Part shown: positions 19,508 through 19,812 of the stretch, piece by piece | How positions within the stretch are numbered: the first letter of the stretch is position 1 | How the letters are laid out: every line of letters starts with the position of its first letter | Assembly: GCA_964016885.1 (NCBI GenBank) | Contig: OZ024742.1 | Coordinates: 108,996,001-109,060,000, forward strand | DNA: 64,000 bases | DNA from: Eledone cirrhosa | Lineage: Eukaryota | Direction of reading: 5' to 3' | Notes under the pieces: model-generated | Databases searched by the model: none | Told to the model about the DNA's origin: nothing | The model's input: the letters and a program-made list of their open reading frames with translations, nothing else | Program-made: the position numbers and the translations under genes

Positions 19508-19812
19508 GAATAAAGTGGTCCTTCATCAGTGATCTTCCAACCATCACAGGTATTTCTTCGCTTTAAAGACCATATACCTCCGGTTGGTGCGAGCAACGGC
19601 TAAAGAAAGTCGTTGGGACATGTAAATAAAAGGAACAGCGAGAGTGTAAACAAACAAAGATGGCGAAGCAACGAAAAGTGAGGAAGAACGAGTCAAGTCC
19701 CAAATTTCCATGAATATAAGTTCGGTGAAATCGTGAACAAGAGAGAATAAAGACCATCAAACCTGGTTGGAATGTGAGCAAGGAAGGAATTCCGTACAGG
19801 TCTAACGGGAAT
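19508..19812 (-). mobile_element. Small non-coding (AT)n insert with conserved structured motif
   Basis: 19509-19593 (minus) aligns with 31445-31530 (plus); contains GAAA and CTGATGA. Confidence 0.55.

Follow-up and report, generated by a model that had tools for sequence, protein, structure and literature searches.

A putative split, non-circularly permuted hammerhead ribozyme in high-copy non-coding tandem repeats of Eledone cirrhosa

The hammerhead ribozyme has been formalised as three blocks, a cleavage strand (S), GAAA (G) and CUGAUGA (C), each assumed to be indivisible, which gives six linear orders (Eckert et al. 2023, PMC10085705). Types SGC (HRIMA-1 and variants) and CSG carry a helix between stems I and II, and cleavage has been shown at the analogous site in both; type SGC comes from metatranscriptomes only, with none in genomes of known organisms, and type CSG is known from just two published metagenome sequences (PMC10085705). 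According to the accessible text of that source, non-circular permutations are represented by a few hundred metatranscriptome sequences and two metagenome sequences, together with one weak bacterial genome case. The accessible portions of the open-access literature gave no account of a split topology, nor of type SGC beyond PMC10085705, and permuted hammerheads in Naiads were not found described there, including in PMC10162972 and PMC13725137.

Two groups of mobile elements provide the closest genomic comparisons. Naiads, whose ORF combines an N-terminal GIY-YIG domain, a CxC motif and an RT, have (TA)n targets, tandem and inverted copies and 30–40-nt tails; they are reported to be without canonical hammerheads, some being labelled ‘core’ or ‘half core’ (Craig et al. 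2021, PMC8557442). Non-LTR retrozymes are repeats of non-coding units set head-to-tail, each unit having a single hammerhead; they are low in GC and linked to Penelope-like elements (PLEs), and they use type I hammerheads in highly self-paired units of 150–450 nt (PMC7229834; bioRxiv 10.64898/2026.07.22.740005).

The window, by which we mean the whole 64,000-nt stretch of E. cirrhosa DNA that was analysed, is a patchwork of retroelement pieces within (TA)n tracts and holds two copies of the motif only (covariance model R1, 125 and 117 bits; no further match in the window). Copy 1, a predicted split, non-circularly permuted hammerhead of 102 nt, was delimited from sequence and pair counts at 19518..19619 on the minus strand. 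Copy 2 lies at 31420..31520 on the plus strand, with H17 at A31465, GAAA at 31482–31485 and CUGAUGA at 31509–31515. The initial annotation had aligned the two segments, and both exist and are homologous (80.7% identity over 83 nt). It began the motif about 26 nt too late, missing helix P0 (GUCC/GGAC) and a hairpin at the true 5′ end, and saw no obvious alignment between the rest of the two inserts, whereas an alignment of the two families extends through the whole unit, with 220/372 columns identical outside the motif and 80/103 inside. Its description of a hammerhead-like RNA with multiple pseudoknots, located at the end of a retroelement and of no canonical type, is borne out: searched alone, the motif matched no Rfam family at E ≤ 10, and for the whole window the only Rfam matches were microsatellite-driven miRNA ones that stayed below the gathering score.

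The motif is far more abundant than the two copies known at the outset. Across 3.0 Gb of genome in 1,796 contigs, a shared-core pattern has 10,248 exact matches versus 0 for the reversed pattern, and a sub-pattern recovers 869 more, divergent copies versus 0 in the control; to these roughly 10,000 copies a second clade, described below, is to be added. The families of both window copies are high-copy (1,312 and 1,754 first-look candidates), and many copies are 99–100% identical to one another. Scanning viral contigs with the pattern gave 0 matches, and the sole match in metagenome contigs, inside a bacterial gene, was set aside as chance. A second organism (B, run X5) has 13 contigs of low depth that resemble the insert and take in the motif region.

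Each window copy sits in a 5′-truncated insert of a non-coding tandem-repeat element. The insert of copy 1 (19505..19810, minus strand) belongs to a family with a unit of about 630 nt, lies between (TA)n tracts and ends about 13 nt past the ribozyme; that of copy 2 (31281..31585, plus strand) belongs to a family with a unit of about 510 nt and has a longer 3′ tail. Elsewhere, copies likewise lie in (TA)n and are 5′-truncated; often they are arranged head-to-tail or have an inverted 5′ copy. Their 3′ ends are of two kinds, one about 15 nt beyond the ribozyme and the other extended by an additional tail of about 36 nt. Measured site to site, 27 distinct head-to-tail units span 432–638 nt, are 66–70% pyrimidine and hold one ribozyme each. 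Folded as circles, units are 40–46% paired (z of −3.1, −1.7 and 0.0) and so are not strongly self-paired. These repeats share the general build of non-LTR retrozymes, low GC and the link to PLEs included, and differ from them in being longer (430–640 nt, with clade B at about 750–800 nt), pyrimidine-rich and invisible to type I descriptors. No PLE ORF is joined to the motif in the fetched copies, and since the units are non-coding, codon periodicity cannot explain the conservation.

The surroundings contain other retroelements. Neighbouring PLE ORFs (window 20942–22267 and loci L131, L091 and L208) were considered as part of the repeats and rejected as other elements, with type I hammerheads of their own or in opposite orientation. 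Type I cores (CUGAnGA, short stem II, GAAA) lie at window 20751 (−), 27232 (−), 42666 (+) and 13784 (+), the last of them decayed; they belong to the 3′ tails of separate Penelope-like elements, one such tail following the RT–GIY-YIG frame at 20942–22267. LINE copies at 5713–8361 (+), 16460–19198 (−) and 36688–38282 (−) have an AP endonuclease, a reverse transcriptase, a C-terminal PHD finger and (GAT)n tails, and a long inverted repeat at 35356–35726 has one and the same CUGAUGA-containing segment on both strands.

The motif runs in the linear order S, G, C. The core letters C3 U4 G5 A6 N7 G8 A9 and G12 A13 A14 are intact in both window copies. U4, G5, A6, G8 and A9 are invariant in the 73 of 73 rows bearing a letter; A13 is A in 62 of 75 profile rows, some of the 13 exceptions being truncation junctions, and the other core letters are kept in 72–74 of 73–75. 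The pair A15.1–U16.1 is U–A in all 31 rows of the main clade (clade A) and in all 14 rows of clade B, and H17 is A or C in all 72 rows bearing a letter, never G. The triplet A19575-U19574-A19573 lies upstream of GAAA, and stem I is located between H17 and C3. In copy 1 cleavage is predicted between 19573 and 19572, after GUAUA.

One set of sequence variants touches this triplet. Read on the ribozyme strand, run X4, a small assembly from a sample that differs from those of the large runs, has A>G at window positions 19575, 19661, 19711 and 19748 and at L062:2086, at 21–71% of depth with 3–8 contigs per site; the corresponding values in X1, X2 or X3 are 0–0.08%. The pattern looks like A-to-I editing of sense transcripts, but it may instead reflect locus variants, a single X4-only A>T being present as well. 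Position 19575 is A16.2, which adjoins U16.1, and editing there, if real, could turn the AUA triplet into IUA.

In copy 1 the fold opens on the minus strand with the 5′ strand of clamp helix P0 (GUCC, 19616..19619), which pairs with GGAC at 19521–19518, one base after CUGAUGA; its outer pair is G–C in 17 of 31 rows and A–U in 14. Hairpin Px (19594..19615) follows, between P0 and stem II, and is 95.9% paired with 4 two-sided changes. Next comes the ‘10.x’ strand of stem II, which is thus supplied from the 5′ end (19589..19593): C19593 stands opposite 11.1, and UCGC pairs with GCGA at 19561–19558 (97.6% paired, 2 two-sided changes, 31 rows). The same 5′ strand runs on into the stem I–II interaction helix, whose CCAACC (19582..19587) pairs with GGUUGG at 19542–19537 over 6 bp (90.3% paired, 4 two-sided changes). 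The 16.x strand of stem III (19572..19579) includes U16.1 at 19574 and H17 at A19573, and its helix AGGUAU/AUACCU is 91.4% paired in the 31 rows. Stem I joins 19572–19566 to 19536–19530 over 6–7 bp with three two-sided changes. Within 19530..19572 a 4-nt linker leads to the 11.x strand of stem II, then to G12-A13-A14-A15.1 (19556–19553) and the 15.x strand of stem III (19553–19548), and a 5-nt bulge separates the latter from the interaction-helix strand at 19542–19537. The C3–A9 core CUGAUGA, placed by sequence and profile rows, is at 19523..19529. With P0 and Px, the base of stem II becomes a four-way junction that would close the break between A9 and 10.1, as the connectivity implies.

Published type SGC shares with this motif the S-G-C order, GAAA and CUGAnGA, multiple pseudoknots, a short I–II linker (4 nt here) and a helix between the distal parts of stems I and II (PMC10085705). 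It differs in that it completes stem II and the interaction helix with the 3′ end, where the motif here draws the second strand of both from the 5′ end, and in that its block C is uninterrupted, where here the block is split between A9 and 10.1 and P0 and Px are added. Type CSG (PMC10085705) has the same cyclic connectivity, so that joining its ends and reopening the circle after A9 produces the present motif, but it differs in linear order and is without the four-way junction. Judged from its sequence, the motif has the core of a hammerhead whose parts are arranged in a split, non-circular way; topologically it is CSG reopened inside the CUGAUGA block. The split of block C and a stem II built on a 5′ strand together break the rule of indivisible blocks that underlies the six published permutations. 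Since the core is complete and a contiguous stem II, as in all six of those permutations, is lacking, we class the motif as a variant hammerhead outside the six.

We consider it probable that this split hammerhead self-cleaves after A19573, as predicted, and that it processes transcripts of non-autonomous, Penelope-like (likely Naiad-type) tandem repeats into unit-length, likely circular RNAs that are re-inserted at (TA)n. Self-cleavage after H17 would follow standard hammerhead chemistry, in which the products carry a 5′-OH and a 2′,3′-cyclic phosphate. The 3′ product contains all of stem I, and about 20 bp (P0, stem II, the interaction helix and stem III) bridge the two products, so the cut ends would stay clamped, favouring religation or circularisation of the monomer. 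A Penelope-type RT/endonuclease acting in trans would then start priming on the RNA immediately downstream of the intact ribozyme; by running round the circle it could leave head-to-tail, 5′-truncated copies that keep a whole ribozyme at their 3′ end. In published ribozymes of types SGC and CSG, which have this core and a stem I–II helix, cleavage occurs at the site analogous to the one proposed here (PMC10085705).

The main rival, which is compatible with self-cleavage and processing as set out above and which we hold to be unlikely, takes the fold as real and as mainly a docking or priming signal for the RT-endonuclease, with cleavage slow, suppressed or reversed in vivo. The distribution of copy ends speaks for it: the 3′ end of a copy falls a short and constant distance beyond the intact motif, with 1,885 ends about 15 nt past it and 7 at the predicted cleavage site, and a microsatellite lies within 75 nt of its 3′ side in 100 of 136 distinct contexts. 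A cleavage-site footprint was looked for in the genomic copy ends and not found, and among the first 18 loci listed the 5′ junctions scatter over TA microhomologies, 3 of them near the site, so copy ends do not mark where the RNA would be cut. A circular template explains these ends too, since on a circle they are independent of the cleavage site, just as they would be on an uncleaved docking RNA. Tolerance of mismatches at 10.1–11.1 in clade A also suits a docking role, as does the description of hammerhead function in EN+ PLEs as unclear in the accessible text of Craig et al. (PMC8557442). What tells against it is that the catalytic letters, A15.1–U16.1 and an H17 that is never G are kept across clades that share no stem sequence; a pure docking fold would have no need of them.

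How stem II is built decides the next alternative. In copy 1, 10.1–11.1 is a mismatch whichever partner is chosen, C·A with the 5′ partner or A·A with the 3′ partner, and clade A is without G10.1–C11.1. On this alternative the motif is an ordinary type SGC with stem II cut to one pair, between the base after CUGAUGA and the base before GAAA, and with the 5′ helices as accessories. The S-G-C order fits, the pair is A–U, U–A or G–U in 20 of 31 rows, and PLE hammerheads with a minimal stem II have been described (PMC7229834). The remaining 11 rows are unpaired there, which leaves this column of 11.1 and its 3′ partner just 64.5% paired. Nor is the use of the 5′ end in keeping with published SGC, which completes both stem II and the interaction helix from the 3′ end (PMC10085705).

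Clade B bears most directly on this point. A pattern requiring C before GAAA gave 736 matches versus 8 in the control and led to a second non-coding family (for example L180:1495-1612, L175 and L177) with units of about 750–800 nt. Its stem sequences are unrelated to those of clade A, its parse is identical and its triplets are GUC. In 13 of 14 rows its 5′ strand forms a 5-bp stem II ending in G10.1–C11.1. As this canonical pair is supplied by the 5′ strand, clade B settles the identity of the stem II helix, and we regard a one-pair SGC as improbable. Across the 14 rows 90.1% of cells are paired; two-sided changes affect 5 pairs, a value not above shuffles. With the clade-A covariance model, 3 of 10 given clade-B loci are recovered at E < 0.01 and one more at 0.59; the other six are missed, as are two remnant loci. 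Three old remnants (L201:1130-1372, L211 and L212) are without an ORF and have a ribozyme like a published Octopus Naiad end; one of the three is an Octopus-Naiad-like 3′ remnant and two are weaker relatives.

The helices also bear on the initial annotation, which proposed five of them, placed GAAA and CUGAUGA in type II order with an insert before GAAA, took UGAU/AUCA as stem I and predicted cleavage after CUG or CUA before UGAU. Three of the helices hold up in the 31 rows (UCGC/GCGA, CCAACC/GGUUGG and AGGUAU/AUACCU) and two do not. UGAU/AUCA is complementary in most copies (89.4% paired) and shows 0 two-sided changes and a duplex energy of −0.5 kcal/mol. UGGUCUU/AGGACCA, the stem II of that model, is 58–81% paired, whereas UGGUCUU pairs instead with AAGAUCA (92–97% paired, 3 two-sided changes); in copy 1 a competing pairing of AGGACCA with the stem I strand is available (−7.7 versus −5.3 kcal/mol). 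The combination expected of type II (GAAA, stem III, UH, stem I and CUGAnGA with nested stems) was not found. The type II site would make H17 a G in copy 1, next to a helix without covariation, and clade B does not fit it; the supported triplet lies upstream of GAAA, in S-G-C order. We give the type II model hardly any chance.

Support for the split fold comes from the alignment of homologues that the initial annotation had called for. Motif matches in the fetched loci number 173, of which 104 are distinct; 84 distinct matches with an intact upstream part were kept, 20 truncated ones were left out, and clustering gave 30 medoids. The clade-A alignment has 31 rows, 29 medoids and the 2 window copies, copy 1 replacing its family's medoid. 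In it 92.5% of cells are paired and 16 of 37 pairs show two-sided changes, a value reached by 0 of 500 shuffles, and slid controls are 30–47% paired. A measure of further pair types is not above shuffles (485 of 500 as high). Counted on a tree, 14 pairs switch Watson–Crick type, with at least 21 switches. RNAalifold, unprompted, predicted P0, Px and stem I and also chose UGGUCUU/AAGAUCA; folding copy 1 as a single sequence recovered P0, most of Px, the interaction helix and stem III, at a z of −0.3 that is not significant in a model outside which pseudoknots lie. A sequence-blind descriptor gave 69 distinct matches in 727 kb of fetched DNA, a number that is no genome frequency because these loci were fetched as holders of the motif; a canonical 3′ stem II of at least 3 bp running directly from A9 occurs in 0 of the 69. 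The same descriptor had 0 matches once the DNA was reversed or complemented, and 0 in three sets shuffled locally. Recent amplification of one repeat with helices arising by chance, a reading that the near-identity of many copies and a shuffle control blind to the relatedness of rows might invite, is already largely refuted by a topology common to two clades with unrelated stems and, as read by eye, to published elements from three phyla, by the switches on the tree and by the empty descriptor controls, and we give it next to no weight.

The carrier repeats resemble Naiads in their (TA)n targets, 5′ truncation, tandem and inverted copies and 30–40-nt tail, and the Px loop resembles that of published Octopus Naiad ends. 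An ORF with N-terminal GIY-YIG, CxC motif and RT is absent from every fetched copy, so that the repeats are likely to be at most non-autonomous dependants, Penelope-like and of Naiad type. Naiads are coding and the repeats are non-coding; cephalopod Naiads have been called old remnants (PMC8557442), whereas the repeats include copies 99–100% identical. No active autonomous partner for the near-identical copies was identified in this genome: a 22-nt Naiad ORF motif had 2 matches, both unrelated, a protein search for Naiad returned 16 PLE proteins with C-terminal EN and zero Naiad, and locus L169, considered as an autonomous Naiad, was rejected as a chance match.

We then parsed by eye the 3′ ends of published Naiads (last 200–300 letters) for 49 of 54 consensi (PMC8557442). 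The split topology appears in 6 of the 49, from a ctenophore, corals and octopuses (Bfor, Amil, Aacu, Anas, Obim and Ovul), and in all six G10.1–C11.1 is supplied by the 5′ strand. Obim and Ovul have stem II GACACC/GGUGUC and stem I CUGCCC/GGGCAG. Amil, Aacu and Anas have stem II GGCUCC/GGAGCC, and Amil and Anas have stem I UAGGAU/AUCCUA, with one mismatch each in Aacu; stem I of Bfor is just 2 bp. Six nematode ends (Nbra 1–3, Hcon, Hpol and Asuum; File S5) read by eye as type CSG with an interaction helix, and the Ptep end as S-G-C, a hairpin preceding GAAA. No complete parse was obtained for the remaining 36 ends in the letters visible.

Taking these ends and the genomic copies together, we lean towards a broader reading, held less firmly than the processing model: the motif would be a seventh natural hammerhead wiring, with the CUGAUGA block split into a four-way junction, ancient in Naiads from ctenophores to octopuses. 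Together with the nematode CSG forms, it would mean that the clade uses non-circularly permuted hammerheads, at more than 10,000 copies in one animal genome, with the clamp acting as a self-circularising module. A ribozyme whose products are clamped by about 20 bp would, if confirmed, be useful for making RNA circles. If the reading is right, non-circular permutations stand at high copy in animal chromosomes, in a topology beyond the six thought possible. It would also account for the failure of standard descriptors to detect hammerheads in Naiads (PMC8557442), and it names cleavage sites that can be tested. The occurrence of CSG and split forms in one retroelement clade would provide a natural series for the origin of permutation by way of tandem pseudo-LTRs.
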